A stretch of 40,054 nucleotides of DNA from assembly GCA_002490245.1 (NCBI GenBank), contig PCNA01000003.1, positions 1-40,054 of the forward strand, given 5' to 3'. Made by a program: the position numbers and the translations under genes. Numbering within the stretch: the stretch's first letter is position 1; every line of letters starts with the position of its first letter. Below, in pieces: positions 1,005 through 39,897 of the stretch. The DNA is from Candidatus Bathyarchaeota archaeon B24-2. Its GTDB lineage: Archaea; Thermoproteota; Bathyarchaeia; Bathyarchaeales; B24-2. The notes under the pieces were generated by a model. It did not search any database, had not been told where the DNA came from, and saw nothing but the letters and a program-made list of their open reading frames with translations.

Positions 1005-1146
1005 CTCTTCAGGCTCCTGGAGCTAACTGTAAAGCCCTCCGTTGGGGGGCGGAGCAGTTAGTTCTAAGAGCTATGAAAGATGGTCGAGCAGAGTTTGGTT
1101 GTTCGGGCTTAGACTCAGCTTGGGGCAATCAGCATTTTTATCTTTT
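958..1146 (+). ncRNA. candidate novel rod-shaped structured RNA (168-nt hairpin plus oligo-T tail)
   Basis: Hand-folded pairings: 958-969/1114-1125 (12 perfect bp), 974-991/1093-1110 (18 bp), tandem G-A/A-G at 992-993/1091-1092, and 994-1006/1078-1090 (13 bp). Then 1008-1011/1074-1077, 1012-1016/1068-1072, 1018-1029/1055-1066 and 1034-1040/1044-1050 closing a GUU loop. There are 12 G-U pairs on the + strand against one C-A mismatch. TATA-like boxes lie at 928-937 and 944-954, and T5 and T4 runs at 1135-1146. Confidence 0.5.
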
Positions 1147-1823
1147 CAGATGCGGAGTAGTACCTTTTTTACGTATCTACGCATGAGCTTAGAGAAGTGT
1201 AGGATCACTTCTTTCGTGTAGGGTTCAACCTTTCTGAAGGATTCATCTAACGTGTCTTCTGGAATGAATTGCTGAAAGACGAAGAGTTTCGCCCCCTTCA
1301 CCAATTCTCCCATCTCTTCGACGTCCTCCTCATCCACAAACCATGGAACCGCTGTACACCTAAACTCGTAATCGACTTCTCCGTTCTTAAGTAGCTCGAC
1401 GGATTCTAGATAAGCAGAAATATCCTCCGCACCCAGCAGTTTATACTTACTCAAGGAGGTTTTAACGTCTAGGGCCACATAATCTACGTATGGTAAACAC
1501 TTCTTTAGTGTTTGGGGGAAGAATCCGTTCGTATCTAGCTTAACCATGAAACCCTCATCCTTGAGCTTTTTGAGGAAGACCGGGAGATCCTGGTTTAAGG
1601 TCGGTTCGCCTCCTGTTATAACGACGGAGTCCACATACTTCTTTCTCGACTTAAGTATCTCTAAAGCTTCCCTTTCTGATAGAAAGGGGCCTTTAGGCTC
1701 TAGGACCAACCTCCAGTTATGGCAGAAAGGGCAACGTAAGTTACAGCCTACTGTAAAGAGTATCGTAGATATTCTATCAGGGAAGTCTAGTAGGCTAGTC
1801 TTTTGGATTCCCCCGAACTTCAT
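1146..1823 (-). CDS. nrdG: anaerobic ribonucleotide reductase activating enzyme (radical SAM)
   Basis: 225 aa with CNLRCPFCHNW (CxxxCxxC) and a GGEPTL motif. It starts 7 nt downstream of nrdD. Confidence 0.85.
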   Translation of the reverse strand: MKFGGIQKTSLLDFPDRISTILFTVGCNLRCPFCHNWRLVLEPKGPFLSEREALEILKSRKKYVDSVVITGGEPTLNQDLPVFLKKLKDEGFMVKLDTNGFFPQTLKKCLPYVDYVALDVKTSLSKYKLLGAEDISAYLESVELLKNGEVDYEFRCTAVPWFVDEEDVEEMGELVKGAKLFVFQQFIPEDTLDESFRKVEPYTKEVILHFSKLMRRYVKKVLLRI

Positions 1824-1830
1824 AGGCCTT

Positions 1831-3951
1831 TCACTTTATCTGTGCAGTCGCTAAAACGACCGATTTATCGAAGGTTCTCCTTAAACGGAACTCAGCCTGT
1901 TTACCGTCGTTCCACTGGTCTACAGGCCTAAGGTAACCGACTACTCTGGAGTATACTTCGCATTTAGCTCCACAGACAGGGCAGGTGTTCTGTTCTCCCT
2001 TGAGGTAGCCGTGGGTTGGGCATATGCTGAAGGTCGGCGTTAAAGTGAAGTATGGCAGACGTGAAGCGTAGGCCACACGTTTCACCAACTCTGCTGCGGC
2101 CTTCCATGAATATAGTTTCTCGCCGAGGTAGATGTGGAAGACGGTTCCTCCCGTGTAGAGTGGTTGAAGCTGGTCTTGATGTTCTATAGCTTCGAACAGG
2201 TCTCCTGTATAGTATACGGGGAGCTGAGAGGAATTCGTGTAGAAGGGTTCAGCACCCTTAGAAAGGTACTTTTCGTTGGCAACTATTATGTCTGGATACT
2301 TCTTCTTGTCGATCCGCGCCAGCCTATAGGACGTCCCTTCCGCCGGAGTAGCCTCAAGGTTATAGAGGTTGCCTGTCTCTTCCTGGAACTCCAGAAGCTT
2401 CTCACGCATGAAGTTCAAGACTTTTATGGCGAACTTTAACCCTTCCTTGCACGCTATTCCGTAGCCGAAGAGGTTTAGAAGCGCCTCGTTCATACCTACT
2501 ATACCTATCGTCGAGAAGTGGTTCTTCCAGTACTTACCGAAACGTTCCTTTATAGAGCGTAGGTAATGCTTAGAGTACGGATATAGCCCCTTCTCTGTAA
2601 ACCTTTCGAGTACCTTCCTCTTTATCTCTAGGCTGTCTTTAGCTAGCTCCATAAGCTCCTCAAGACGCTCGAAGAATCCGTCCTCATCCTTCTGGAGGTA
2701 TCCGATCCTCGGGAGGTTGATGGTCACCACCCCTATAGACCCGGTGAGCGGGTTAGCCCCGAAGAACCCTCCACCACGCTTGCGTAGCTCACGGTTATCT
2801 ATCCTCAGACGGCAACACATACTCCTAACGTCTTCGGGTTTCATGTCGCTGTTTATGAAGTTCGAGAAGTATGGTACACCATACTTTGCGCTTAACTCGA
2901 AGATTTTCTGCGAGACAGGTGATTCCCAGTCGAAGTCTCGTGTTATGTTATAGGTCGGTATGGGGAAGGTGAAGACCCTTCCCTTAGCGTCTCCTTCAGT
3001 CATGACCTCCGCGAGGGCGATGTTAAACATGTCTATTTCTTCCTGCATCTCCCCGTAGGTGTCATCCATTATTTTCCCAGCATAGATTACCGGCTCATCC
3101 TTCATGAAATCTGGAACCGTTAAATCTAGGGTTATGTTCGTAAAAGGAGTCTGGAAACCAACCCTAGTCGGAATGTTAATGTTAAAGATGAATTCCTGCA
3201 GGGCCTGCTTCACCTCTCTCTCGTTTAACCCGTCGTAACGGATGAACGGCGCGAGGTACGTGTCGAAGTTGCTGAAGGCTTGGGCGCCGGCTGCCTCACC
3301 CTGCAACGTATAGAAGAAGTTCACCACCTGCCCCAACGCCGTCCTCAAGTGTTTTGGAGGCTTGCTCTCTATCTTTCCTGCTACACCGCCGAATCCTGAG
3401 AAGAGTAGGTCGCTTAGGTCCCAGCCGACACAGTAGGGGCCTAGGACACCTAGGTCGTGAATATGGAAGTCTCCTGAGAAGTGTGCGTCCCCTATGTTGG
3501 GTGGATAGATCCTCGTGATCCAGTATTTAGCGATAACCGTGGAGGAGAGGTAGTTGTTTAGTCCTTGCAGTGAGTAGCTCATGTTAGAGTTCTCTCGAAC
3601 ACGCCAGTCCTCCATCTCCAAGTATTTGTCTACGAGGTCTGCCGAGCTCAGGAGGGCGGCCAGCTCCCTCAAGTCTTGATGCTGCTTACGGTAGAGGATG
3701 TAAGCCTTCGCGGTCCTCGCATGACCGTTCTCGATCAGGACTTTCTCTACTACGTCCTGTATCTCTTCTACCGTGGGGACACCGTCTTCCCCGAAACGTT
3801 TCTCCAGAATCTCTACTACTTGGTCGCTTAGCCTCTCGGCAAGCTCCCTATCTTTGCCTCCAACAGCCTTAGCGGCCTTCCAGATAGCGTTAGCTATACG
3901 GCTCTTATCGAACTTCTCTAACCTTCCATCCCTTTTACGAACATATTTCAT
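1831..3951 (-). CDS. nrdD: class III (anaerobic) ribonucleoside-triphosphate reductase
   Basis: 706 aa. It has an N-terminal ATP-cone (VRKRDGRLEKFDKSRI), the finger loop SMCCRLRID, a C-terminal zinc ribbon (CPTHG...CPVCG) and the glycyl-radical motif YSRVVGYLRPV. Confidence 0.92.
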   Translation of the reverse strand: MKYVRKRDGRLEKFDKSRIANAIWKAAKAVGGKDRELAERLSDQVVEILEKRFGEDGVPTVEEIQDVVEKVLIENGHARTAKAYILYRKQHQDLRELAALLSSADLVDKYLEMEDWRVRENSNMSYSLQGLNNYLSSTVIAKYWITRIYPPNIGDAHFSGDFHIHDLGVLGPYCVGWDLSDLLFSGFGGVAGKIESKPPKHLRTALGQVVNFFYTLQGEAAGAQAFSNFDTYLAPFIRYDGLNEREVKQALQEFIFNINIPTRVGFQTPFTNITLDLTVPDFMKDEPVIYAGKIMDDTYGEMQEEIDMFNIALAEVMTEGDAKGRVFTFPIPTYNITRDFDWESPVSQKIFELSAKYGVPYFSNFINSDMKPEDVRSMCCRLRIDNRELRKRGGGFFGANPLTGSIGVVTINLPRIGYLQKDEDGFFERLEELMELAKDSLEIKRKVLERFTEKGLYPYSKHYLRSIKERFGKYWKNHFSTIGIVGMNEALLNLFGYGIACKEGLKFAIKVLNFMREKLLEFQEETGNLYNLEATPAEGTSYRLARIDKKKYPDIIVANEKYLSKGAEPFYTNSSQLPVYYTGDLFEAIEHQDQLQPLYTGGTVFHIYLGEKLYSWKAAAELVKRVAYASRLPYFTLTPTFSICPTHGYLKGEQNTCPVCGAKCEVYSRVVGYLRPVDQWNDGKQAEFRLRRTFDKSVVLATAQIK

Positions 3952-3998
3952 ACGTCATCCTGCCTAGAGAGTCTGTAAGACTATCATTAATAGGAATA

Positions 3999-4029
3999 CT
4001 ACAAAAACTTAAATATTTTCTACAGAAAA
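3999..4029 (-). promoter_or_regulatory. nrdD promoter region: a TATA-like AAATATTT box bracketed by two CTACA(A/G)AAA direct repeats
   Basis: CTACAAAAA lies at 3999-4007 and CTACAGAAAA at 4020-4029, 21 bp apart. They flank AAATATTT (4011-4018), about 60 nt upstream of the nrdD ATG. Confidence 0.35.
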
Positions 4030-4053
4030 TTAGACAATAATCGTCTTTGGAAG

Positions 4054-15371: not shown

Positions 15372-16067
15372 TTGAAGATACTGGTTATAGCGGATATACA
15401 CGCGAACATAGTCGCTTTTAAGGCTGTCCTATCCGACGTGAAGGACTACGACTTGATACTCCATGCCGGCGACATAGTGGACTATAACCCTTGGCCCGGT
15501 GAGGCGATAGACCTAGTTAAGGAACTCGGAGTTAAGACCGTTATAGGAAATCACGACAGAGACTCGGCGACCGGGGCTCCTGTAGGATATAACCCCTACG
15601 CGGAGATAAGCTGCCTATGGACGCATAGAAGATTAACGAGAAAGGAGAAACTTTACCTGCTAAGACTCCCAGAAACCTTAACTTACGACTTTAACGGTGT
15701 CAAGGTTTTTATGTGTCATGGTAGCCCTAACTTCCCGGTCGACGAGTATATTTTTCCTCCACCCACAACACCTGAAAGATACCTTAAAGAATTGGTTATG
15801 AAGGCTGGGGCAGACGTCCTGATCTTAGGACACACGCATGTACCGTTCATCTATAAAGTCGACGGAAAATACGTTTTAAACCCGGGTGGAGTCGGGCAAC
15901 CCCGCGATGGAGACCCTAGAGCGAGCTACGTTATGATGGAGGTTGACGGGGGAGAGGTGAGATTCGAGCATCGTAGAGTGCGTTACGATGTCGAGAAGGT
16001 GGCAGACGAGATACTCAAGGTCGGCTTACCGGAGATGCTTGCTAGAAGACTGTACTTCGGATTCTAG
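15372..16067 (+). CDS. metallophosphoesterase (YfcE/MJ0936-like)
   Basis: 231 aa with the DIHAN, GDIVD, GNHD and GHTH motifs and a TTG start. Confidence 0.8.
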   Translation: MKILVIADIHANIVAFKAVLSDVKDYDLILHAGDIVDYNPWPGEAIDLVKELGVKTVIGNHDRDSATGAPVGYNPYAEISCLWTHRRLTRKEKLYLLRLPETLTYDFNGVKVFMCHGSPNFPVDEYIFPPPTTPERYLKELVMKAGADVLILGHTHVPFIYKVDGKYVLNPGGVGQPRDGDPRASYVMMEVDGGEVRFEHRRVRYDVEKVADEILKVGLPEMLARRLYFGF

Positions 16068-16738
16068 AGTCTAGCTCCGAACGTCTTAGAGCCTGTTACA
16101 CAGAACTCTATTATAGGGCATGACCGGCATCTCGGCTTTCTCGCTCTACAATACTTCCTACCCAAGGCTATAAACGCCAGATGAACCGTTAAATAATCTT
16201 CCACTTTAAACAGGGATTCTAAGGTCTTCCTCAACTCCTCGTAGCCAGCTCCCTCCTCAACGATCTTTAACCTCTCCGAAACCCTTCTCACGTGTGTATC
16301 CACAGGTATTACAGGCCTCCCAGCCGAGAACAGGAGGACTACGTCGCATGTCTTCGGGCCTACACCAGGCAAACTCATCAACTTCTCTCTAGCTTCGTCT
16401 AGCTCCGCGGTGTATACGAAGTCGAGGTTTCCTCCAAACCTTTCCAAAATCTCTTTCGAGACGGCTTTTATGACCTTTGCTTTATTCCTCTGTAGACCGC
16501 CTATTCTGATGGCTGATTCTATGTCTTCTATGCTGGCCTCTGCAAGTTTGCTGGGAGAAACCTTAAACCTTTTAGCTAGTCTCTTGAAAGCTCTTTCAGT
16601 ATTTATGCTGCTCGTAGACTGCGAGAGTATAGTCCTTATTAGGGTCTCGAAGGGATCTCTCTTAACGTGTGTTGGCCGTAGAGCGCCGAACTCGAACTTT
16701 AATTTTTCGAGTATTCTGCTGGCCGTGGAGTAGTCCAT
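16064..16738 (-). CDS. nth: endonuclease III / HhH-GPD DNA glycosylase
   Basis: The HhH motif LPGVGPKTCDVVL, VDTHV and the Fe-S loop CRARKPRCRSCPIIEFC are present. I take the start as the internal ATG at 16738 (MDYSTASRIL...). The upstream 151 codons of the 375-aa track ORF look like non-coding run-on. Confidence 0.8.
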   Translation of the reverse strand: MDYSTASRILEKLKFEFGALRPTHVKRDPFETLIRTILSQSTSSINTERAFKRLAKRFKVSPSKLAEASIEDIESAIRIGGLQRNKAKVIKAVSKEILERFGGNLDFVYTAELDEAREKLMSLPGVGPKTCDVVLLFSAGRPVIPVDTHVRRVSERLKIVEEGAGYEELRKTLESLFKVEDYLTVHLAFIALGRKYCRARKPRCRSCPIIEFCVTGSKTFGARL

Positions 16739-16787
16739 GAGGAAACCTATATAGATGGTTGTATAAAGATGTGTTTGGTAGGTTTCG

Positions 16788-17141
16788 ATGGCTAAAGTAT
16801 CGAAGTTCGAGCTTTTGAGTGGAGAAAAGAAGTTTACCGCCGTTAAATTAACCGTGGAGAACGCCGTCTTCATGCTTCTCAGCGAGGATGAAGAGAGCCT
16901 CGGAACACTAGCCGTAGCGATCCCACAGAAAGGCGGTATGCTCGGTCCGTCGATCTCCTCTGTTCTTCTAGGCAACCGTGAATCCATGCTTACGAGGATG
17001 CTAGCTGAGCGGCTTGCACATTTAACCGGAAAGATGAGCCTAGTGTCTCTCTTCGCTAGAACGGTATACGGCATGGAGGCCGCTAAACTATACGCGAAGC
17101 TTTTTGACGGTGTTATGAAGGCTGAGGAGAGAAGTCTATGA
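16788..17141 (+). CDS. small protein translationally coupled to the UbiD-family gene (possible LpdD-like accessory or chaperone)
   Basis: 117 aa. Its stop overlaps the UbiD ATG (ATGA at 17138-17141). My recollection of LpdD similarity is weak. Confidence 0.5.
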   Translation: MAKVSKFELLSGEKKFTAVKLTVENAVFMLLSEDEESLGTLAVAIPQKGGMLGPSISSVLLGNRESMLTRMLAERLAHLTGKMSLVSLFARTVYGMEAAKLYAKLFDGVMKAEERSL

Positions 17142-18481
17142 GCCTTAGAGGGTTCCTCTCTGAAATGGAGGAGCGTCGAGAGGTAGTCCATATCGAGGAA
17201 TCCGTCTCTCCTCGGTTTGAGGTCTCAAAGCTAGCTATGGAGTTCGACGGAGGACCTATACTATTCTTCGAGAACGTCGAGGGAAAGAAGGTCGTCGTGA
17301 ACGTATGTGGAAGTCGGGATAGGATATGCCTTGCCTTAAAGTCAAGGCGCCAAGACCTTCATAGAAAGCTCGTTACCTCCATGCACTACTTGAGAACTCC
17401 TGAGGTAGTCGATTCGGCTCCCTCTCAAGAAGTCGAGGAACCCGATTTAGGAGATATACCTATCCTAACACACTTCGAGAAGGACGGTGGCCCATACATA
17501 ACTTCAGGTGTTATATACGCTAGAAGCTCTAAGCTAGGAGTCGAGAACGTTTCCATTCATAGGCTTCAAGTTCTAGACGACTCGACCCTAGCCATAAGGC
17601 TTGTTCCGAGGCATCTATACAAGTTGTGGATGGCCCATAAGATGGAGAAAAAAGACTTGGAAGTCTCGGTCTCTGTCGGCGTCCACCCAGCAGTTCATCT
17701 AGCAGCCGCAAGCTCACCGCCGTTCGGCGTAAACGAGTTCCATATAGCGAACAGCCTTTTAGCCGGAGAACTTAAACTGGTTAAATGCTTGAAGGTGGAT
17801 GCCTACGCTCCTGCCGAAGCGGAATTGATCATCGAAGGCATAATCTCATGGGAGAGGGAGGCGCTGGAAGGCCCTCTCGTGGATATTCTAGGCACATACG
17901 ACGTCCAGAGAATGCAGCCGATAGTCGAAGTTAAGGCTGTAACGCACAGGAAAGACTATGTATACCAAGCGATCGTCCCTTCGAGCATGGAGCACAAGCT
18001 ACTTATGGGTCTCCCTAGAGAGGCTTTGATCTGGGAGGCTGTCTCTAAGGTCGTTCCTGAGGTTTATGGCGTCAGGTTGACTATGGCTGGAGGTGGATGG
18101 CTGCACGCCGTGGTCTCGATAAGGAAGCAGAGGGAGGGAGACGGAAAGAACGCTCTTCTCGCGGCGCTTGCAGCGCATCCAAGCCTAAAGCACGTTGTCG
18201 TAGTGGACGAAGACATAGACGTTTACGATAGCGAGGCGGTCGAGTGGGCTATAGCTACGAGGTTTCAGGCAGATAGGGACCTCATAGTGGTGAAAGACGT
18301 GAGGGGGTCGACGCTCGACCCCTCCTCCGACCAAGAGAGAGTCCTAACTTCGAAGGTCGGGGTCGACGCGACCAAACCTATGGATAAGCCTAAAGAGAAG
18401 TTTGAGCCTGCGACTATACCATCGACGAGTAGGATAGAAGGGCTTATCGAGAGTTTAAGGAAGCGGTTAGCTATAAGGTGA
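17138..18481 (+). CDS. UbiD-family decarboxylase, probably trans-anhydromevalonate 5-phosphate decarboxylase
   Basis: 447 aa with UbiD-like length and layout. It is convergent (2-nt gap) with the aconitase-X genes of the archaeal mevalonate pathway. Confidence 0.65.
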   Translation: MSLRGFLSEMEERREVVHIEESVSPRFEVSKLAMEFDGGPILFFENVEGKKVVVNVCGSRDRICLALKSRRQDLHRKLVTSMHYLRTPEVVDSAPSQEVEEPDLGDIPILTHFEKDGGPYITSGVIYARSSKLGVENVSIHRLQVLDDSTLAIRLVPRHLYKLWMAHKMEKKDLEVSVSVGVHPAVHLAAASSPPFGVNEFHIANSLLAGELKLVKCLKVDAYAPAEAELIIEGIISWEREALEGPLVDILGTYDVQRMQPIVEVKAVTHRKDYVYQAIVPSSMEHKLLMGLPREALIWEAVSKVVPEVYGVRLTMAGGGWLHAVVSIRKQREGDGKNALLAALAAHPSLKHVVVVDEDIDVYDSEAVEWAIATRFQADRDLIVVKDVRGSTLDPSSDQERVLTSKVGVDATKPMDKPKEKFEPATIPSTSRIEGLIESLRKRLAIR

Positions 18482-20081: not shown

Positions 20082-21374
20082 CTAGAACGATATGCGCGCC
20101 GAGAAGGGTGTATCGCCTAAAATCTTCTTAGCGGCCTCCCTAACCTGACTTCTATACCTATCTTCCGTGTATATACGAAGGATGTTGACGAAACCTTTTA
20201 GGGCGCTGAAGATTCCAGATATCCTGTTTAAGTCTAGAGGGACTTTCTCTCCGTTTTTAGTCCTCTTGAAGACTGGAACCTCCATGGGTTCCAGTAGTAT
20301 CGAGTGTCTATACGGAACCGAGGGAACGTTGGGTACGTCGACTATAACATATGACGAATCCACTTTAGCTTCGTTCGCTATCTCCTCCTCGACGTTTCTA
20401 CGAAACTCTTCTTTACCGAACAGGCTGGATATGAATTCGTCCTTAACTTGGAAAGTCCTTTCATAAACGCATTTCAGTAGGTCTCTATTCTCTAATCTCC
20501 TGATGGTTTCTGCCGCTCCCTCACTCTCCTTAAGCATACTCCACGTTGTATAGTCGTCTTTAGCTAGATAGCGTTCAGGATCCTCGAAGTCTAGGAGGCC
20601 AAGCTCGTCTTTAGCCCTCTCCATAGCATACGCCAGCATTATTTGAACCGCCCTAGAAGTCCTGTGGAAGTATATGCTCTTAAAAGATTCCACCCTAGCT
20701 AAGATGAAGGACTCGAACGCGGACAACGCGCCTACATCAAGCGCTAGGTTATCTTCTAGGATATCGAGGGTTCTTAAGAGACGATAGACGTCCACGAATC
20801 CATACTCTGCCCCGGTATGATAAGTGTCTCTAACTATGAAGTCTAGCTTGTCCACGTCCACAGCGCTTCTGATGACTTGGTCCAAAAAAGCTTTACCTTT
20901 TTCATGTAGCCCACCTACGGCTAGCCTAGCTATCTTATCAGGGTTAAAACCGAGGCTTCTAAGCTTATCGCCGAGTTCAGACTTAGTTATGACCCATCTC
21001 GTTAGGTCCTCATGGGTTTTAGAAAGAAACTTCTCTAGCAGATGCTCGTATACGTGAGAGAATGGACCATGACCAACATCGTGTAAGAGCGCTGCAAGCC
21101 TCACCTCCTTAGCTTCGTCCCCGGATATCACTTGAGATAAATGAGGATTTTGAAGCAGGACTTTCGTGAGATAAAGAACTCCTATAGAGTGCTCAAATCG
21201 AGTGTGATTTGCCCCGGGATAGACGTATTCTGAGCCGGCTAGCTGTCTGATTCTTCTAAGTCTTTGCACAGGATATGTATCTATTATCTCCTTTTCCACT
21301 TCAGAGATGTAGACGTAACCGTGGACGGGATCTTTAATCTCTCCCCAAGTCTTCTCAGACATATCGACCAACAT
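20082..21374 (-). CDS. HD-domain phosphohydrolase (dNTP triphosphohydrolase/SAMHD1-like)
   Basis: 430 aa with HTRFEHSIGV and HDVGHGPFSH. Confidence 0.75.
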   Translation of the reverse strand: MLVDMSEKTWGEIKDPVHGYVYISEVEKEIIDTYPVQRLRRIRQLAGSEYVYPGANHTRFEHSIGVLYLTKVLLQNPHLSQVISGDEAKEVRLAALLHDVGHGPFSHVYEHLLEKFLSKTHEDLTRWVITKSELGDKLRSLGFNPDKIARLAVGGLHEKGKAFLDQVIRSAVDVDKLDFIVRDTYHTGAEYGFVDVYRLLRTLDILEDNLALDVGALSAFESFILARVESFKSIYFHRTSRAVQIMLAYAMERAKDELGLLDFEDPERYLAKDDYTTWSMLKESEGAAETIRRLENRDLLKCVYERTFQVKDEFISSLFGKEEFRRNVEEEIANEAKVDSSYVIVDVPNVPSVPYRHSILLEPMEVPVFKRTKNGEKVPLDLNRISGIFSALKGFVNILRIYTEDRYRSQVREAAKKILGDTPFSARISF

Positions 21375-21456
21375 TCAGAGCTTAATTTTTAGACTATATT
21401 TAAAATCATCATTACTTACATATTATAGTTGACCTTTCCAGAGGAAAAATGGGGAA

Positions 21457-22077
21457 ATGGTTAAGGAAGGTGTCTTCATCTGTCTTGAAGGGTTAGACGC
21501 CAGCGGTAAGACCACACACTCAAAACTGTTGGTTAGGAAGCTCCGCAAGATGGGGTTGACTGCCCGTTACACGAGGGAGCCAAGCAACGGAGAGATCGGG
21601 CGACTGATAAGGAAAATGATCCTCAAGAGGGAAGAAAGGACCAAGATAGCGATCGAGGCTTTACTATTCGCAGCCGACCGTTTAGACCACATCCAAAGAG
21701 AAATAGCCCCTAGCTTGGCTAGAGGGGAAATAGTCGTATCGGATCGATACTTATACTCTTCTCTAGCCTACCAAGGAGGAGCTGGGTTAGACTTAGACTG
21801 GATCGAAGAGCTTAATAAGTTTGCTTTAAAACCGGACCTAGCTCTATACATCGATGTTCCGCCGGAAGTGGCGATCAAGAGGTTGAGTAGAGAGAAGAGC
21901 GTTATGGAGAGACTCGAAACACAGAGGAGAGTGCGAGAGATATACTTGCAGATGGTCAAAGACGGAAGGATAGTCTATGTAGACGGAAACAGAACGATAA
22001 GAGCCGTTTCACGTGAGATCTTAGATATCGTTAAGGGATTCCTTAAAGAGAGAGGGTTGTTGGCTAAGGAATCTTAA
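21457..22077 (+). CDS. tmk: thymidylate kinase
   Basis: 206 aa with the P-loop GLDASGKTT, the REP segment and SDRYLYSSLAYQ. Confidence 0.85.
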   Translation: MVKEGVFICLEGLDASGKTTHSKLLVRKLRKMGLTARYTREPSNGEIGRLIRKMILKREERTKIAIEALLFAADRLDHIQREIAPSLARGEIVVSDRYLYSSLAYQGGAGLDLDWIEELNKFALKPDLALYIDVPPEVAIKRLSREKSVMERLETQRRVREIYLQMVKDGRIVYVDGNRTIRAVSREILDIVKGFLKERGLLAKES

Positions 22078-31525: not shown

Positions 31526-32892
31526 CTTCCCCTCATATAGTTTACGACCGTTTTGATGGCGTCCTTCACGAAGATGAATTGCCTATCCTTTATCCATCTC
31601 CAGATAACCTTAGGTCTAAGGTAAAAACTGAGGTAAGCTTTCTGTAAAAGCGATTTTAGCTGTCTCGCCGTTAGGTTTTTAAGCTTCATAACAGGGTCTA
31701 TAACCGTGTATTTAGACCAGTCCTTAGTCAACAATAGACCGTTTTTCAGGGCGAAATCGAAGATCGGAGTACCTGGATAGGGGGTTAAGATCGAGAACTG
31801 AGCATAGTCTAGATTCAATTTTTTGGCGAAGTTTATCGTCTGTTTGATCGTTTGTATGGTGTCTTCTGGGAAGCCGAGTATGAAGGAGCCTAAAACCTGC
31901 ATTCCAGCCTCCTTCACGGTCTTAACAGCTTTTTTAGCTTGCTCCAAAGTTATCCTTTTACCTATAGAGTCTAAGATTTTCTGGCTGCCTGACTCTATGC
32001 CTAGATAGAGAACCCAGCATCCCGCCCGCTTCATCTTTTCGGCTAGCTTCCTAGTTATCGTGTCTACCCGTGAGGAGGCAGACCAAGCGATGTCTAAGCC
32101 CTCTTTAATTATTTTATCGCAGATCTCTTCAGCCCTCTTACGGTTAAGCGTGAAGGTGTCGTCCATAAGCTCTATATCCCTTATCTTGTAGTCATCGTGG
32201 ATGATTCTTATTTCTTCCAACACATTTCTGGGGCTTCTACCTCTCCAGCGGCAACCGAACAAACGTGAAGACGAGCAGAAGGAGCAGCCGAACGGGCATC
32301 CTCTGCTTGTGATCATCGTCGCATACTTTACACCGTTAAACTGGTAGAGGTCTATCGGAAGCAGGTCTCTACTCGGGAAAGGGATGCTATCTATGTCTTT
32401 GATGAAGGGTCTAGGTTCGTTATCTATTATCTGACCGTTCTTCCTGAAGGTTATGCCCCGCACTTCATCTAACGGAGCGTTCTTCTCGATAGCTTTCGCC
32501 AGCTCTTGAACCGTCTCTTCCCCCTCACCCTTAACGATTACGTCGACGTATCTACACTCCTCCAAAGTCTCCTTCGGTAGGAACGTTACGTGAGGGCCGC
32601 CCATAACTACTGTGCAGTCTTCTCTTACCTCCTTAGCGACCTTAGCTACGGCGTAGGCTTGATATATCGAAGACGTTACGGAAGTTATTCCCACTATATC
32701 GGGGTTAAAGGACTTCAGCTCCCTTCTTAAGTCTTCCAACGTATAGTTTAAAGCAGCGGAGTCGATTATCTTCACTTTATGCTCCTTTCTCAGGACAGAG
32801 GCTAGGTAAGCTAGACCTAACGGTGGAGAAGAAGAGCCGAAAGTGGAAGCCACCGCGGATTTGTATGGAGGAGAAACTAGGCATACATTCAT
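31522..32892 (-). CDS. B12-binding-domain radical SAM enzyme (class B / COG1032-like)
   Basis: 456 aa with an N-terminal Rossmann-like domain (VVMGGPHVTF), then RGCPFGCSFC. It overlaps both neighbouring genes by 4 nt. Confidence 0.8.
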   Translation of the reverse strand: MNVCLVSPPYKSAVASTFGSSSPPLGLAYLASVLRKEHKVKIIDSAALNYTLEDLRRELKSFNPDIVGITSVTSSIYQAYAVAKVAKEVREDCTVVMGGPHVTFLPKETLEECRYVDVIVKGEGEETVQELAKAIEKNAPLDEVRGITFRKNGQIIDNEPRPFIKDIDSIPFPSRDLLPIDLYQFNGVKYATMITSRGCPFGCSFCSSSRLFGCRWRGRSPRNVLEEIRIIHDDYKIRDIELMDDTFTLNRKRAEEICDKIIKEGLDIAWSASSRVDTITRKLAEKMKRAGCWVLYLGIESGSQKILDSIGKRITLEQAKKAVKTVKEAGMQVLGSFILGFPEDTIQTIKQTINFAKKLNLDYAQFSILTPYPGTPIFDFALKNGLLLTKDWSKYTVIDPVMKLKNLTARQLKSLLQKAYLSFYLRPKVIWRWIKDRQFIFVKDAIKTVVNYMRGR

Positions 32893-34418
32893 CTCTTTAC
32901 TTCAACCCTCTCCACGCTTATCGGTTTAGGCATAAAGGCACCGTAAACTCCCCTAGCCTTCCATTCAACGATCTTTACGAATAGCCAGTAAAAGAAAGAC
33001 GATATCCTACTATACCACCTACCTTTAAAGTAGGAGTGTATCATAACTTTAGTCCACTTTATATCATGTCTTAAACATTTTATTAAAAGCTCCCTCTGTA
33101 AATCGTTCATCTGCTCGACCGTGAACCAGTCCTCATCCTTCAGCCTTCCGAGGGGAACGAAGAAGAGGGGGACTATTAAGCTTTTAAAATCTTTAAGGTC
33201 GTCCATCAGCTCGATCGTCTTAATCACGTCCTCATCGGTCTCTTCAGGCAGCCCGGTTATCAGAGTGCATGCAGGCACAAGGTTATTATCCGTCATTATA
33301 CCAGCAGCCGTCTTAACGACCTCCGGCCACTGCTCAGGCTTGAACGGCCGAGCCTTTGCAGGCATAACCTTCTTTACGAGCTCTGGTGAGCCTGTTTCTA
33401 TGCCCACTTCAGCTCCCCACCACTCTTGGTTTTCATCCAATATTATCTCGGCGACGTCTTCAACCAACATCGGATCGGTCGCCACAGCAGCCATCGACGT
33501 GTGACTCCAACTCAGCTGATTAACGTATCTTTTACATAGCTTATGTAGCTTCAACACTTTTTTCCTGTCAGGTATAACGCTTCTCGAACCATAGAGTAGA
33601 ACGTCTTCAGCATGTATCACCGAGTATTTTAAGCCTGCATCCGTGTTTACTTTAAGTTCTTTCTCGATCTTCTCGTAGGGATACCAGCGTAGAGGCCTCA
33701 AGGTAACGCTGCAGAAGGCGCAGCCCCGACAGCAGCCCCTCCCGATCTCGATTAAACCGTTTACGGAGGGGTTCTTGATTTCAGGTATCTCGTCTACGCT
33801 CGGAGACTCGTGTATACTCACCTCGTAAAACCTTGGAAGACTCTTTCCCTCGATAGCTCTTCTAACTATCTCACCAACCACCTTCTCGGCTTCACCGTCT
33901 ATAACGCAGTCTATTCCATGGTCTTCCGTAAACTTAGGTTTGAGTTTAAGTTGCCATGCGCCGGGTCCTCCGACTATTATCTTGAGGCCACGTTTCTTAG
34001 CTTCCACGACCTCGGGCTTCTCGAGCAGTATTCGAAAATACTTCGCGAGATAGGGTTCTCCTGTTTGGAGTATCCGGGAGAAGGTTGAGGAGGAGGGGCC
34101 TAGACCGAACGGGTCCATAACGTGAATGCCTAATACCTTAGCGTCAGATATATAGCGCTTCAGATGGTCTGGGTCTACGGTCAGGACTTCGAAGCCTTCG
34201 TTTAACAGTTGAGCCTCTATCTTTCTAAGTCCATAAGGGGCTTCTAGCGGTATACCGTCCACGTTCTTTATAGGAGGAAAGAACAGAAGCTTAAAAAACC
34301 ATTCTGGCACGACGTTTGGGGGAGCGGTTGTCCCGAAACCTAGGAACTCGTTTTGGTGGTAGTTACTCATCAAAGTCCTATCGGCGGTCAATACGACCTC
34401 GGGCCTCGTGCATCCCAC
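32889..34418 (-). CDS. radical SAM enzyme with a B12-binding-like N-domain (archaeal uncharacterised family)
   Basis: 509 aa with LTADRTLMSNY...FLGF at the N-terminus, IIVGGPGAW, and then GRGCCRGCAFCS (CxxxCxxC). Confidence 0.75.
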   Translation of the reverse strand: MGCTRPEVVLTADRTLMSNYHQNEFLGFGTTAPPNVVPEWFFKLLFFPPIKNVDGIPLEAPYGLRKIEAQLLNEGFEVLTVDPDHLKRYISDAKVLGIHVMDPFGLGPSSSTFSRILQTGEPYLAKYFRILLEKPEVVEAKKRGLKIIVGGPGAWQLKLKPKFTEDHGIDCVIDGEAEKVVGEIVRRAIEGKSLPRFYEVSIHESPSVDEIPEIKNPSVNGLIEIGRGCCRGCAFCSVTLRPLRWYPYEKIEKELKVNTDAGLKYSVIHAEDVLLYGSRSVIPDRKKVLKLHKLCKRYVNQLSWSHTSMAAVATDPMLVEDVAEIILDENQEWWGAEVGIETGSPELVKKVMPAKARPFKPEQWPEVVKTAAGIMTDNNLVPACTLITGLPEETDEDVIKTIELMDDLKDFKSLIVPLFFVPLGRLKDEDWFTVEQMNDLQRELLIKCLRHDIKWTKVMIHSYFKGRWYSRISSFFYWLFVKIVEWKARGVYGAFMPKPISVERVEVKR

Positions 34419-34492: not shown

Positions 34493-35062
34493 ATGCCGCG
34501 TATAGACGAGCTAGACAAAAAGATAATAGCCATACTTCAGAAGGATGGAAGGGCCTCGCTTACAGATATAGGTAGGAAGCTCGGTCTCTCCCATGTCAGT
34601 ATTAGGAAAAGGATAGAAAAACTCTACGAGAAGGGTGTTAAGGTAACCGCTGGCCTCGACGCCAGAAAATTCGGTTTCCGTATAGCGATAGTGAACGTCG
34701 AAGCTGAAGGACATGAACGCCTTCTAGAACTATTAAAGAAGTTCTCCGATTGCCCAAGGATGGTGTTCATGACGACGACTACCGGAGACTACAACCTCAT
34801 GACCGTCATGATAGCAGAAGACGCCGACACCTTAAATTCGATAATCGAATTCTGTTCTGCAAGAAACCAGAAGGGGATAAGACGGTCAGAGGCGATAGTT
34901 GGTGAAGCACCCATACTTCCCAAGTATCTACCTATAAGGATCGTGGCAGAGAAGATGTTAGAAGACGCACCCTGCGGAGTGAACTGCGGTAGATGCGCAC
35001 GGTATAAAGAAGGGAAATGTCTCGCCTGTCCGGCGACGAAGTATTATCGCGGCCCCCTCTAA
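34493..35062 (+). CDS. Lrp/AsnC-family transcriptional regulator with a C-terminal Cys-rich extension
   Basis: 189 aa with an N-terminal HTH (LDKKIIAILQKDGRASLTDIGRKLGLSHVSIRKRI) and a RAM-like middle. The tail is CGVNCGRCARYKEGKCLAC (Cys161/165/168/176/179). Confidence 0.8.
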   Translation: MPRIDELDKKIIAILQKDGRASLTDIGRKLGLSHVSIRKRIEKLYEKGVKVTAGLDARKFGFRIAIVNVEAEGHERLLELLKKFSDCPRMVFMTTTTGDYNLMTVMIAEDADTLNSIIEFCSARNQKGIRRSEAIVGEAPILPKYLPIRIVAEKMLEDAPCGVNCGRCARYKEGKCLACPATKYYRGPL

Positions 35063-35909: not shown

Positions 35910-35987
35910 TGGTGGGGCCGCCCGGATTTGAACCGGGGTCACGAGAGCCCAAGTCTCGTAGCCTAGACCAAGCTAGCCGACGGCCCC
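35910..35987 (-). tRNA. tRNA-Pro (anticodon UGG) with genomically encoded CCA
   Basis: The reverse complement GGGGCCGTCGGCTAGCTTGGTCTAGGCTACGAGACTTGGGCTCTCGTGACCCCGGTTCAAATCCGGGCGGCCCCACCA folds as a cloverleaf. The acceptor stem is GGGGCCG/CGGCCCC, the anticodon stem CGAGA/TCTCG with loop CUUGGGC, and the T arm CCCGG-TTCAAAT-CCGGG. A TATA-like TTAATAAAC lies about 30 nt upstream. Confidence 0.93.
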
Positions 35988-36056: not shown

Positions 36057-36515
36057 TCATGATAAGATTTGTTTCGCTATCTCCATTCCGTATCGTCGAC
36101 AGGTTTTTGAGGTTTCCTCTTCGTCGTCGCCTGAAGCCCTTACGATTCCTGGAACGATCTTCATTTCATGGTGGAAGCCAAAGGCTAGCTCGAGCATTCT
36201 GATGCAGTCTTTTCCGTCTCTACGGGTTCCTGAGGAGGTGAAGCAACCTCCGACCTTACCTTTAAGCTGTTTGCCTCTATAGAGTTCTATCGATTCGTCG
36301 ATGAGCTTCTTTATCTGCCAAGCTACGTTGCTGAAGTAGGTCGGCGAACCCACGACTATTCCGTCTGCCTCGAGTAGGTCGCTTAACCCGCATTCCTCAA
36401 CCCTCTTCAACTCTACTTTGACCCCTAAGCTCTCGGCTCCCTTAGCGATTTCTTCAGCCATCCTCCCGGTATTACCCGTCCCCGTATAGTATACGATAAG
36501 CAGCTTCTTAGCCAT
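36057..36515 (-). CDS. flavodoxin-like FMN protein
   Basis: 152 aa with LIVYYTGTGNTGRMA at the N-terminus and GSPTYF. Confidence 0.75.
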   Translation of the reverse strand: MAKKLLIVYYTGTGNTGRMAEEIAKGAESLGVKVELKRVEECGLSDLLEADGIVVGSPTYFSNVAWQIKKLIDESIELYRGKQLKGKVGGCFTSSGTRRDGKDCIRMLELAFGFHHEMKIVPGIVRASGDDEEETSKTCRRYGMEIAKQILS

Positions 36516-36578
36516 CTCGACACCTCAAGAATCCTATAATCCCACTCTAAATTTTTAAGGTTATTCCGCATATTTTAT

Positions 36579-38891
36579 TTGGGGTCGACTTTGTCGAGAA
36601 GGGCTTTAAGGGTCATTAAGGCCTTTTCTTCAAGTCTTAGACTCAAGATCCTTAACCTCCTTCTCCTTAGAGGACAGCTCTCCTACACCGAGATAATGAA
36701 CGAACTTAAGCTCAACCCCGTAAGAGACGCGGGCAGGTTCGCCTATCACCTTAAACTCCTGTTGGAGTCAGACCTTATAGAGCTAGACCCTTCGACGAAG
36801 AGGTACAGGCTTACGGACCTAGGACGCAGGGTGATAGACGTAACCGAAGATATAGAGTCTAAGGTCTCCCCACATAGAAGGATGCTTGTAAGGACCAGTA
36901 AGGCCTCACTCGAAGAGTTCGATAGGAATAAGATCGTGAATTCCCTAGTGAAAGAGGCGAACGTTCCCTTAGAGGAGGCGCAGAGGGTAGCTAGGGAAGC
37001 AGAGCGGCGACTACAAAGGTTTAAAACAAGGTACTTAACCGCTCCACTCATCCGGGAGGTGGTGAACGCCGTCCTCCTAGAGAGGGGACTCGAAGAGTAT
37101 AGACATAAGCTTACTAGGTTGGGGCTCCCAGTCTACGACGTAACAAACCTCATAAAATCGGCTAGCGGTAGAGGGGTAGACGTGGATTCCATCGTCCGCT
37201 CCGCAGGTGAAAAGGTCTTCGCAGAATACACCTTACTCAACGTGCTCCCAAGAGACGTCGCAGACGCCCATCTCTCAGGAACCTTTCACATAGAGAACCT
37301 AGGAAACTGGATTCTCAAGCCCGACGGCTTCGTTCACGACTTAAGGTTTCTCTTCAGGTATGGAATCAGATTCGCCGATACATACTCCACGAAAACGATT
37401 TACCCGCCGCCTAAAAGCTATGAAGGGGCGTTACAGAGCCTAGTTAAACTGGTCTACGTTACCGCTGGTGAAGTGGTCGGCGAGCAGGCTTTACCCCACT
37501 TCAACGTCTTCCTAGCTCCGTTCATTAAGGGATTGAAGGAAGAGGAGATCCTAGAAGGTGTAAGAGGTTTCTTGACTATGGTTAACGGTATACAGGCAGA
37601 GTCTGGACCCGGCGTCTTATCCATAGGGTTAGACCTCTCGATCCCAAAGAGTCTCGCCGAGGAGGAGGCATACGGTATGGGAGGTGAAGCCCTCGGCGGC
37701 TACGCGGAATTTACGGACGAGAGCCTAACGTTAGCCTCAGCCTTCATGGAAGCTTTCCTAGAGCACTATAAAGGAAAACCGGGGATAAACGTCATACCGA
37801 TAGTTAACCTCCAAAAGGAAAATCTAAACGGTGAAGACGGTCTCCTCTATAAGGCGCATGAATTAGCGGCTGAGACCTCACTTCCCTTGTTTGCTGATCA
37901 GTCTAAGAGCAGAGGAGACTTAGTGTACATGGCCTCCGGTGTTAGGTTTAACTGTGATTGGACGGGTGATTGGGAGTTAGATACCCTCAGAGTAGGAGTA
38001 CTCGGAAGGGTCGACTTAAACCTGCCTCGACTATACTACGATAGCAGGGAGGAGGGTAGAAGGTTTGAGGTTCTGTTGGACGAGAGAGTAGAGATGGCTA
38101 TACGCGCTCTCGAAATAAAGTATAGAGCGATAAACCAGAGAGGAGAGGAGGGAGTGATCCCCTTCCTGTTTCATACATGGTCAGGTGACCGATACTTTCA
38201 TCTCAGAAACTCTATTCGCGTGTTGAGCATAGTGGGCTTGAACGAGGTGATCGCAGCGATCTTAGATCGTGAACTTAAGTATGGAGCCGAGGAAGCCCAT
38301 TTAGCAGAGAGAATACTCAAGCAGACCGTTAAGAGAATCGAAGAAAACGCTGGAGTATACAACGCGCGGGTAAGACTCTCCGCCTATCCCCATCCAGAAG
38401 CCGCCGAAAGGCTAGCCCGCCTCGACGTTGAGAGGTATGGGTGGTCTAAGGTTAAAGTTCAAGGCGACAAGGAGCATCCCATCTATACAGACTCAGGTTT
38501 GATTCCATTCTCCTCAGACATACCCTTAAAGACCAGACTTAGGTTTGAAGGTTTAATTCAGAAATACACGGGTGGAGGCCACTTAGCGGTGATACAGCTG
38601 GAAGACGTACAACATGAACCCGAAGAACTACTCTCCGCAACTATCACAGCGATCAAGGACTTCAACCTCAACCTATTCACGTATAATCTGGAGTCAACTT
38701 ACTGTCTAGCCTGCGGGAATAAAAGCTATGGGTCCCCCTTTAAGTGTCCTAAATGCGGTTCGGCAGACACCCTGGTCTATTACAGTCGACTGTTCGATAG
38801 GTACCTCCCCTTAAAATATTGGACAGAGGTTAGAGCATATCATAGACGATTCTATAAAAAATACAAGTTGAAGTCAGAGATTAAAGGCTAA
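36579..38891 (+). CDS. winged-helix + ATP-cone + NrdD-like domain fusion lacking the glycyl-radical glycine
   Basis: 770 aa with a TTG start. Residues about 10-90 look ArsR-like (LRLKILNLLLLRGQLSYTEIMNEL...RYRLTDLGRRV). Residues about 100-185 look ATP-cone-like. The body aligns by eye with the NrdD at 1831..3951 (GTFHIENLG vs GDFHIHDLG, FNVFLAPFI vs FDTYLAPFI, VDLNLPRLYY vs VTINLPRIGY). The zinc ribbon CLACG...CPKCG is kept. YSRLFDRYLPLKYW replaces YSRVVGYLRPVDQW. Confidence 0.8.
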   Translation: MGSTLSRRALRVIKAFSSSLRLKILNLLLLRGQLSYTEIMNELKLNPVRDAGRFAYHLKLLLESDLIELDPSTKRYRLTDLGRRVIDVTEDIESKVSPHRRMLVRTSKASLEEFDRNKIVNSLVKEANVPLEEAQRVAREAERRLQRFKTRYLTAPLIREVVNAVLLERGLEEYRHKLTRLGLPVYDVTNLIKSASGRGVDVDSIVRSAGEKVFAEYTLLNVLPRDVADAHLSGTFHIENLGNWILKPDGFVHDLRFLFRYGIRFADTYSTKTIYPPPKSYEGALQSLVKLVYVTAGEVVGEQALPHFNVFLAPFIKGLKEEEILEGVRGFLTMVNGIQAESGPGVLSIGLDLSIPKSLAEEEAYGMGGEALGGYAEFTDESLTLASAFMEAFLEHYKGKPGINVIPIVNLQKENLNGEDGLLYKAHELAAETSLPLFADQSKSRGDLVYMASGVRFNCDWTGDWELDTLRVGVLGRVDLNLPRLYYDSREEGRRFEVLLDERVEMAIRALEIKYRAINQRGEEGVIPFLFHTWSGDRYFHLRNSIRVLSIVGLNEVIAAILDRELKYGAEEAHLAERILKQTVKRIEENAGVYNARVRLSAYPHPEAAERLARLDVERYGWSKVKVQGDKEHPIYTDSGLIPFSSDIPLKTRLRFEGLIQKYTGGGHLAVIQLEDVQHEPEELLSATITAIKDFNLNLFTYNLESTYCLACGNKSYGSPFKCPKCGSADTLVYYSRLFDRYLPLKYWTEVRAYHRRFYKKYKLKSEIKG

Positions 38892-38940: not shown

Positions 38941-39897
<957 letters not shown>

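Follow-up and report, generated by a model that had tools for sequence, protein, structure and literature searches.

A conserved archaeal family of NrdD-like proteins with a winged helix-turn-helix domain, candidate regulators of ribonucleotide reductase genes

The gene and its three modules

The stretch of DNA studied here (the window; 40,054 nucleotides of contig PCNA01000003.1 from Candidatus Bathyarchaeota archaeon B24-2) carries two genes for proteins resembling NrdD, the class III (anaerobic) ribonucleotide reductase (RNR). One is a bona fide nrdD followed by nrdG. The other encodes a longer protein, called pseudo-NrdD below, and is the subject of this report. An earlier reading of the letters alone (the sequence-only reading) had divided this protein into an ArsR-like winged helix-turn-helix (wHTH), an ATP-cone-like segment and an NrdD-like barrel lacking the radical glycine, and had suggested that it is a transcription factor. 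It was found that pseudo-NrdD belongs to a large, conserved and previously undescribed family. The positions of the gene, its parts and the other features of the window are given in Table 1.

Table 1. Features of the window, in the numbering of the whole stretch
Feature	Position	Strand	Basis
pseudo-NrdD gene, 770 aa, TTG start, TAA stop	36579..38891	+	Open reading frame check, Pfam, BLASTP
wHTH, residues 14-87	36618..36839	+	Pfam DUF7347, AlphaFold2 secondary structure
Divergent ATP-cone, residues 102-174	36882..37100	+	Pfam ATP-cone
NrdD-like ten-stranded barrel, residues 208-752, active site remodelled	37200..38834	+	Pfam NRDD, Foldseek
Zinc ribbon, kept: Cys709, Cys712, Cys723, Cys726	38703..38756	+	Homologue alignment
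GAT codon of Asp740, radical-glycine position	38796..38798	+	Alignments to NrdD
TATA-like AAATTTTTAAGG, own promoter of the pseudo-NrdD gene, ~20-30 nt before the start	36549..36560	+	
nrdD, bona fide, probable target gene	1831..3951	-	Canonical ATP-cone, SMCCRL, PYC, YSRVVGYL
nrdG, radical-SAM activase, after nrdD	1146..1823	-	Pfam Radical_SAM
Candidate operator TTTCTACAGAAAATTAGACAATA, nrdD promoter	4017..4039	+	Position weight matrix, 18.8 bits
TATA-like AAAATATTTAAG of nrdD, abutted/overlapped by the candidate operator	4019..4008	-	
Weaker second box copy ATACTACAAAAACTTAAATATTT	3996..4018	+	Position weight matrix, 7.3 bits, within null range
pyrB, convergent with the pseudo-NrdD gene	38941..39888	-	Pfam OTCace_N, OTCace
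tRNA-Pro(TGG)	35910-35987	-	
Flavodoxin-like gene (FMN_red/Flavodoxin_1), divergent from the pseudo-NrdD gene, 63 bp gap	36057-36515	-	
Lrp/AsnC-type regulator	34493-35062	+	HTH_AsnC-type, weak AsnC_trans_reg match
HD-domain hydrolase (HD_assoc_2 region, dNTPase-like), divergent from thymidylate kinase	20082-22077		
Radical-SAM gene, wyosine-formation C-terminal domain (Taw1/TYW1-like)	4054-4977	-	
Second further radical-SAM gene	32889-34418	-	

All three modules named in the sequence-only reading were recovered by Pfam. The N-terminal part matched the ArsR-type wHTH family DUF7347 (E 5e-7; 30.3 bits against a curated cut-off of 27.6); the HTH_20 and HTH_5 matches were weak and below their cut-offs, and the NCBIfam model NF033788 gave pseudo-NrdD 20.7 bits against a cut-off of 55. 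The ATP-cone was matched with an E value of 5e-8 (33.8 bits; cut-off 25.8). The NRDD model gave 7e-66 for pseudo-NrdD and 5e-204 for the real NrdD of the window, whose own ATP-cone matched at 7e-26 and which scored 1100 bits with NF006126. In the NrdD equivalog model TIGR02487, pseudo-NrdD reached 228 bits and thus fell under the cut-off of 326, as against 600 bits for the window's NrdD and 520-600 bits for real RNR neighbours of family members. No NrdR model matched pseudo-NrdD in the Pfam and NCBIfam scans. BLASTP aligned residues 104-750 with the window's NrdD at 25% identity (E 2e-42), and the four Cys residues of the zinc ribbon are kept, in agreement with the full-length alignment that had been made by eye.

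An AlphaFold2 (AF2) model of pseudo-NrdD was built on 41 homologues (predicted local distance difference test score, pLDDT, 79; predicted template modelling score 0.72). When it was compared with known structures by Foldseek, the top matches were class III reductases, 36 in number. The best of them were the S. thermophilus (9d3x), P. copri (8p2s), T. maritima (4coj) and T4 (1h79) enzymes, with E values from 6e-25 to 1e-16 and template modelling scores of 0.6-0.78 by target length. Confidence was lowest at the finger-loop tip (465-468) and in the former glycyl loop (738-748). The wHTH was modelled as four helices (7-15, 19-31, 36-42 and 47-63), a two-strand wing (67-70 and 75-78) and a fifth helix (80-96) with a pLDDT of 84-90, and the linker behind it (91-99) had a low pLDDT. 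Searched alone against the sequences of the PDB, the wHTH gave one spurious match to a designed protein and nothing else.

Catalytic residues and conservation of the family

The residues were mapped through an alignment with T. maritima NrdD and the structure paper on that enzyme, in which the radical residue is Gly621 (PMC4493059). The segment YSRLFDRYLP of pseudo-NrdD pairs without gaps with YSRVVGYLRP of the window's NrdD and with MRIVGYLVP of the T. maritima enzyme. Thus, the radical glycine is Asp740, as had been read from the GAT codon. Is this a lesion of one strain? In an alignment of 120 homologues with 48-99% identity, on which the residue statistics are based, the Gly column contains Ala in 101 sequences (84%), Asp, Thr and Ser in four each and Gly in three, and Asp occurs only in the small clade of the window protein (P0001-P0004). 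The RVxG(Y/F) motif is therefore not kept in the orthologues, and the residue after the Gly position, Tyr in NrdD, has become Arg or Lys in the family. The T4 G580A enzyme is an inactive mutant used in crystallography (PMC4493059).

Other parts of the active site were also changed. The 'bottom' Cys (Cys125 of T. maritima) is Gly250 in the window protein and Glu in 101 of the homologues. The triphosphate motif HxHD reads HIEN (237-240), HxNN being the family consensus, and the NxN flap, judged against the work on P. copri NrdD (PMC11226230), is lost. The finger loop of the window protein is ASGVRFNCDWTGDWELD (452-468). In the family alignment SMCCRL of NrdD stands opposite ASGVRF (family consensus ATGCRF), so that the replacement of this motif, which had been noticed before, is borne out; the deletion behind the loop amounts to about six residues relative to NrdD and not to about ten. 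The position of the thiyl Cys is Val455, which is again specific to the clade P0001-P0004, and in the wider superfamily described below just 2 of 120 representatives have a finger-loop Cys.

The ATP-cone has VRTSK in place of VxKRDG. Its KRDG is opposite T106-S107-K108-A109, that is, TSKA and not RTSK as first read. In solved cones the Lys-Arg pair touches the nucleotide phosphates (PMC11226230). The residues of the last helix are kept (Y174, R175, K177 and R180), their counterparts being Tyr83, Arg87 and Arg91 of P. copri NrdD (PMC11226230). Across 28 genuine Bathyarchaeia NrdDs of three subtypes 94 columns are invariant. The family departs from them in 49 of these columns; TPAE, the NxN flap and two substrate contacts in loop 2, Gln and Phe, are among the changes. 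New invariant motifs have no counterpart in NrdD: DWxGDWELDT in the finger loop and, around what was the active site, W244, K247 and H253. The Cys residues of the zinc ribbon vary little or not at all (Cys723 is present in 119 of the 120).

With the radical Gly, the bottom Cys, the thiyl Cys and HxHD all gone, the claim that the protein is not a glycyl-radical reductase holds, and it can be said with near certainty that pseudo-NrdD is not a reductase. On the evidence of its sequence it fails five defining catalytic features of NrdD as well as the curated score cut-off, and it should not be filed as NrdD despite its NrdD fold.

How widespread is the fusion? A protein search gave more than 120 full-length clusters with 48-99% identity, all of which have the same three modules; those with source names are Bathyarchaeia. 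When one genome per species was scanned, at least 448 species genomes were found to encode a relative. The best 80 of the 448 are nearly all labelled Bathyarchaeia or Bathyarchaeota, and the more diverged relatives come from metagenome-assembled genomes (MAGs) annotated as Thaumarchaeota/Nitrososphaerota and Odinarchaeia. The possibility that the wHTH part is a separate gene joined to the rest by a sequencing error is thus refuted, because the fusion is one open reading frame (ORF) in more than 120 clusters and in about 448 species genomes.

The ratio of nonsynonymous to synonymous substitution rates (dN/dS) between the window gene and that of the nearest species (L004; 85% identity) is 0.093 overall, with 0.037 for the wHTH, 0.035 for the cone, 0.114 for the barrel and 0.07 for the C-terminus. 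The neighbouring genes have comparable values (pyrB, 0.057; flavodoxin, 0.068). Conservation within the family peaks in the cone, where 41 of 86 positions are invariant and the mean top-residue frequency is 0.89; the pocket region 216-262 (0.87), the wHTH and the finger loop (0.82 each) come next, and the values are lowest in the former Gly loop (0.66) and the tail (0.35). The recognition helix (..RDAGRFAYHLK..) is almost invariant across 83 loci. Such a pattern, to judge from the alignments, is the signature of a new function and not of decay.

A profile of the N-terminal 200 residues was searched against 1.84 billion representative proteins. It retrieved 207 clusters (at 50% identity) with an E value of 1e-30 or below, mostly 560-800 residues long, whose source names are Thaumarchaeota/Nitrososphaerota, Odinarchaeia and Bathyarchaeota. 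This wider superfamily shares the helix G(K/R)F(A/S/G)YHL(K/R) and the VRTS-type cone. The catalytic Cys and Gly occur almost nowhere in it, and many members have no Gly loop or zinc ribbon. No stand-alone 'mini' form consisting of the wHTH and the ATP-cone was found when short proteins were looked at; the matches were all contig-end fragments or frameshift-split genes. In two long-read contigs (L084 and L085) gene calling has broken up the family gene, pyrB and nrdJ into two or three pieces each. These splits look like frameshift errors in long-read assemblies, and such errors give rise to spurious 'stand-alone wHTH + ATP-cone' proteins in the databases.

Neighbouring reductase genes and a promoter box

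The gene order was analyzed in the 67 loci for which 1.5 kb or more of sequence behind the gene was available. In 34 of them the next gene is a genuine nrdD on the same strand, and in 22 pyrB(-)/pyrI(+) come next, including the window and its closest relative L004. Ten loci have unrelated genes there (among them those for an M24 peptidase, translin, SepRS, SIS and Band 7 proteins), and in one (L044) the contig ends inside another NrdD-like gene. The conserved order of the family is tRNA - pseudo-NrdD - (RNR gene) - pyrB/pyrI. A tRNA-like sequence in the same orientation as in the window precedes the family gene at many other loci, so that this order looks ancient. No activase gene is associated with the family gene.

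The 34 adjacent nrdD genes fall into three subtypes whose mutual identity is only about 25-45%. Most of them (27) consist of a glutaredoxin/NrdH-like gene and an NrdD with an intact WWSRVTGYY (TIGR02487, 520 bits), three are of the subtype of the window's NrdD (70% identity) and four are of a third subtype. A typical family member is nearer to the glutaredoxin-linked NrdD (252 bits) than to the window-type NrdD (170 bits), which suggests an origin by tandem duplication. Thus, the adjacent glutaredoxin-linked type is the probable source of the family, through duplication. In L008 and L010, the family proteins are 95% identical, but the downstream nrdD genes belong to different subtypes (about 26% identical), and L010 has kept the promoter box described below and a 45-codon truncated remnant of glutaredoxin/NrdH (L010:5299-5560). 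The reductase was thus swapped beneath an unchanged putative regulator.

The linkage extends to another class of RNR. In L085, L206 and L207, the last two of which are Thaumarchaeota-type loci, the gene directly downstream is nrdJ for the class II (adenosylcobalamin/B12-dependent) enzyme, and its products score 533-542 bits with TIGR02504 (cut-off 400). A role as a subunit partner hardly accounts for neighbours from two mechanistically unrelated reductase classes, whereas regulation accounts for them easily. In L212, a dCTP deaminase gene begins 17 nt after the family gene, and in L208 and L209 the family gene is divergent from pyrB. No adjacent nucleotide gene was seen in L210 and L213.

The adjacent reductases often have no recognizable ATP-cone (L001-L003, L206 and L207). 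The glutaredoxin-linked NrdD starts with VRRTDG and has no Pfam cone match, and NrdJ has no cone; the cone of the window's unlinked NrdD is canonical. The family protein might supply the overall activity control of these cone-less enzymes.

I found that, where nrdD follows the family gene, its promoter has a conserved box, TTATACAGAATTTTATAC, next to the TATA element. The intergenic block reads TTATACAGAATTTTATACnnTT, and an element resembling the transcription factor B recognition element (BRE) and TATA box, CTAAAAAATTAAATA, follows about 8 nt further on. Two near-palindromic TRTAYA half-sites, spaced 12 bp from start to start, make up the box and form a perfect inverted repeat (TATACAGAAATTTGTATA) in L016 and L031. 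Its distance to the first aligned residue of the downstream gene has a median of 97 nt, while that from the upstream stop codon varies from 4 to 257 nt; the box is thus anchored to the downstream gene. With a position weight matrix (PWM) built from the other Bathyarchaeia boxes, the window's own excluded, matches of at least 17 bits occur almost solely before a downstream nrdD in about 1 Mb of loci. In a metagenome scan for the exact 18-mer, 47 of the 120 matches have a Bathyarchaeia context, and all of these have the order box, grx, nrdD. The remaining 73 are unrelated, mostly AT-rich and without promoter context.

The window is one independent instance of the box. Its nrdD promoter has an 18.8-bit site, 66 nt upstream of the nrdD ATG (3951, minus strand), which is the single outlier in the 40 kb, the runner-up having 9.9 bits. 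Markov shuffles of the window gave a maximum of 9.4 +/- 2.9, and none of 200 reached 18.8. The pseudo-NrdD gene of the window is 33 kb from nrdD, whose promoter still carries the box, and this fits a trans-acting factor. Across the TATA-like element, at a distance of 21 bp from the first copy, lies the weaker second one, which is not significant alone. The wider set of targets supposed in the sequence-only reading is not supported. By the PWM, the box is absent from the family gene's own promoter, and it is absent at the tmk, HD-hydrolase and pyrB/pyrI promoters; only the nrdD target was found.

The own promoter of the family gene has a block of another kind. The TATA-like AAATTTTTAAGG of the window is its version of a family-wide block, ACTTTAATTTTTTAAACTA, which is present in most of the loci L001-L083. 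The block is near-palindromic and AT-rich, and its core TAAAAAATTAAA is, when reversed, the TATA-like element of the nrdD promoters. It may be only a strong TATA/BRE or an operator as well.

Some further matches were seen. A degenerate TRTAYA-N6-TRTAYA pattern gave 16 matches in the window against 11 +/- 4 expected, and was dropped for the PWM. One perfect match to it (TATATAGATGGTTGTATA; 16748-16765) lies inside a minus-strand ORF (16064..17191) and is probably due to chance, as the PWM gives it just 6-7 bits. In L031 (10325-10808), and also in L016, L030 and L036, two copies of the box lie behind the family gene with no nrdD after them, and one of the two copies in the L031 group is the perfect inverted repeat TATACAGAAATTTGTATA. 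The sole candidate gene before pyrB in these four loci is an 85-codon Cys-rich ORF (CETC...CETCG).

Putative function, its alternatives and further observations

What could such a protein do? I consider it probable, at roughly 60%, that this non-catalytic paralogue of class III NrdD acts as a transcription factor on RNR genes, the pseudo-reductase part being its sensor. In the proposed mechanism, pseudo-NrdD would dimerize through the NrdD barrel, as NrdD does, and the two flexibly tethered wHTH domains would sit on the two TRTAYA half-sites by the BRE/TATA of nrdD, which in the window would be the site at 4017-4039. A small ligand, bound by the conserved ATP-cone, by the remodelled former active-site pocket or by both, would set the DNA occupancy or the oligomeric state. 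Nucleotides are the most economical guess, since the cone is the most conserved domain and its last helix has kept aromatic and basic residues; the likeliest ligands would be adenine nucleotides or deoxynucleotides (ATP/dATP or deoxynucleoside triphosphates, dNTPs). RNR transcription would then track the dNTP/ATP state, as with bacterial NrdR. The box is upstream of the BRE/TATA in most loci and overlaps it in the window, an arrangement that fits repression or activation alike.

By analogy, and as had been suggested, the family would be a counterpart of NrdR, and its position upstream of class III and class II RNR genes and the box at nrdD support the idea. Beyond the shared cone the two are unrelated. 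Bacterial NrdR has a zinc ribbon and an ATP-cone and represses RNR operons via paired boxes (PMC9110341, PMC12176259). Both proteins join an ATP-cone to a DNA-binding module, both show gene linkage to RNRs of at least two classes, and paired repeats are seen at RNR promoters in both cases, although the family's box is not an NrdR box and its recognition by pseudo-NrdD is putative. The expected logic, control of RNR transcription by the nucleotide state, is also the same (PMC9110341, PMC12176259). In contrast, NrdR has about 150 residues with an N-terminal zinc-ribbon DNA-binding module and a canonical cone, while pseudo-NrdD has 770 residues with an ArsR-like wHTH, a divergent cone (VRTS for VxKRDG) and a whole 560-residue barrel with a C-terminal zinc ribbon. 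The box sequence of the family is not known to be related to NrdR boxes. For most archaea, little is known about the transcriptional control of dNTP synthesis, NrdR being mainly bacterial; the earlier statement that archaea lack NrdR was too strong.

Pseudo-NrdD shares with the class III enzymes of T4, T. maritima, P. copri and S. thermophilus the fold, the N-terminal ATP-cone and the C-terminal zinc ribbon. It differs from them in having no radical Gly, no following Tyr, no bottom Cys, HxHD or NxN flap and, in the window, no finger-loop Cys, in its extra N-terminal wHTH, in scoring under the NCBIfam equivalog cut-off and in having no associated activase gene. RNR paralogues without catalysis are known elsewhere, such as yeast Rnr4, which acts in the assembly of the R2 heterodimer, and enzyme-derived sensors are known in regulators, such as the TrmB family and the 'trigger enzymes' BirA and PutA. 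Herpesvirus R1 homologues, e.g. MCMV M45/vIRA, are dead RNR paralogues that inhibit necroptosis (PMC12845177). Rnr4 and M45/vIRA resemble pseudo-NrdD in being RNR subunits kept for another role without catalysis, but they are derived from class I, act by protein contacts and have no DNA-binding domain, and a part in transcriptional regulation has been proposed for neither. ArsR/SmtB-type and archaeal wHTH regulators resemble it in that a wHTH is joined to an enzyme-derived domain and the sites lie by the BRE/TATA, whereas the sensor of pseudo-NrdD would be an entire glycyl-radical-enzyme barrel with an ATP-cone. No description of a wHTH-cone-NrdD fusion was found in literature and full-text searches and in RNR phylogeny and structure papers.

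Several points weigh against a regulator of RNR genes that senses nucleotides. What is said of DNA binding, ligand and regulatory effect is deduced from the sequence, a predicted structure and comparisons between genomes. In about half of the loci, no RNR gene lies within 8 kb. The protein and the box are linked by association, and the box could be the site of another factor. The window's copy runs opposite to nrdD and is nearer to the TATA than elsewhere. Diverged boxes in L018, L019 and L022 go without an obvious change in the helix, no common upstream motif was seen at the three nrdJ genes (few sequences), and the comparison of helix and box for covariation was powerless because the recognition helix is essentially invariant. 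With the Lys-Arg pair of the cone changed to Thr-Ser, the canonical contacts to the nucleotide phosphates are gone and nucleotide binding is uncertain; together with the loss of the substrate triphosphate motif, this leaves the ligand uncertain. Moreover, the finger-loop Cys is still present in 77% of close homologues, and a pure sensor has no obvious need of it.

Some of these points would suit a transcription factor that senses a non-nucleotide signal (redox, oxygen, formate or a reduced redoxin pool), or one whose barrel and cone are only a dimerization scaffold. Such a factor would be in keeping with the changes in the cone (Lys-Arg to Thr-Ser) and the triphosphate motif (HxHD to HxNN), the missing loop-2 Gln and Phe and NxN flap, the new pocket motif DWxGDWELDT with W244, K247 and H253, and the finger-loop Cys and the invariant zinc ribbon. 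It seems unlikely, given that the cone is the most conserved domain, with its aromatic and basic last-helix residues kept, and that the genomic association is specifically with genes of the dNTP pathway. Could the protein instead act on a protein partner, as a regulatory subunit in a heterodimer with catalytic NrdD, or as a decoy for NrdG through the zinc ribbon or C-terminal domain? Inactive RNR paralogues do pair with active ones, as yeast Rnr4 does. The family gene adjoins nrdD in half of the loci, the glutaredoxin-linked NrdD is its nearest relative as if by tandem duplication, many adjacent RNRs have no recognizable ATP-cone, and the zinc ribbon, a proposed NrdG contact, is kept (PMC4493059). 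Nevertheless, every member carries a fused wHTH, in which the recognition helix hardly varies and dN/dS is 0.04, 95% identical proteins precede NrdDs of two subtypes with a mutual identity of only about 26%, and relatives precede class II NrdJ, which has neither the NrdD dimer interface nor an activase. In the window, the gene is far from nrdDG and the nrdD promoter still has the box. A role as protein partner is thus quite improbable.

A still smaller chance remains for an enzyme whose chemistry needs no glycyl radical, with another radical source for the finger-loop Cys or with a non-radical nucleotide reaction. The Cys at the thiyl position in most close homologues, the Gly in three members and the high conservation of the remodelled pocket would be compatible with it, and T. 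maritima NrdD shows that the finger-loop sequence alone can mislead (PMC4493059). However, the window protein has Val455 and no Cys there, every catalytic residue tested is absent, and neither the triphosphate motif nor the NxN flap nor loop 2 has been kept. Almost everywhere the superfamily has no Cys and Gly, often with no Gly loop or zinc ribbon either, and the TIGR02487 score is far from the cut-off (228 vs 326 bits), so that such an enzyme is very improbable. That the gene is a decaying duplicate of nrdD, a pseudogene in progress with Asp740 as a lineage-specific lesion, is hardly credible. The confinement of Asp740 and Val455 to the clade P0001-P0004 would agree with it, but the ORF is intact in about 448 species, the loss of Gly is family-wide, the overall dN/dS of 0.09 is comparable to that of pyrB, and new invariant motifs have arisen; decay is refuted by the comparative conservation and the dN/dS.

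A transcription factor for RNR genes is therefore preferred here. In its full form, the proposal is that a whole class III RNR subunit, cone and remodelled pocket together, was turned into the allosteric sensor of a wHTH factor for class III and class II RNR genes, and that this independent archaeal counterpart of NrdR spread through Bathyarchaeia into lineages annotated as Thaumarchaeota and Asgard; for this entire scenario the balance is even. If true, the regulator would be a fossil of the enzyme it regulates. It would be a case of enzyme-to-regulator exaptation, in which the allosteric machinery of RNR (cone and dimeric barrel) senses its own pathway and catalysis has been discarded. The family is a concrete candidate, with a predicted operator and target genes, for the transcriptional control of archaeal dNTP synthesis, and the pair of box and regulator could become a nucleotide-responsive switch for archaeal genetics.

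The family also matters for annotation. Many members are named 'anaerobic ribonucleoside-triphosphate reductase' by NCBI and JGI, and others, including those of Thaumarchaeota/Nitrososphaerota, are annotated as 'ArsR family transcriptional regulator' (P0006, P0010, P0025 and P0318 are among the reductase- or ArsR-named entries). Since the reductase label is attached to proteins without the radical Gly or the catalytic Cys, metabolic reconstructions of MAGs may wrongly infer an anaerobic RNR. This concerns Bathyarchaeia, Thaumarchaeota-like and Asgard MAGs, and the mislabelling matters most where the real RNR is the B12-dependent class II enzyme.

Other genes of the window may be mentioned. The divergent flavodoxin-like neighbour of the pseudo-NrdD gene is also present in the closest species (L004). 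In E. coli, the NrdG activase receives its electrons from flavodoxin, and a functional link to anaerobic dNTP synthesis is thus conceivable. The Lrp/AsnC-type regulator 1.5 kb upstream of the pseudo-NrdD gene is another candidate DNA-binding protein nearby. The Taw1/TYW1-like gene ends about 100 bp before the nrdD start, so that the nrdD promoter and the box are squeezed between the two genes. L003 has the same pair of HD hydrolase and thymidylate kinase genes a few kb before its family gene, which indicates a loosely conserved neighbourhood of dNTP metabolism.

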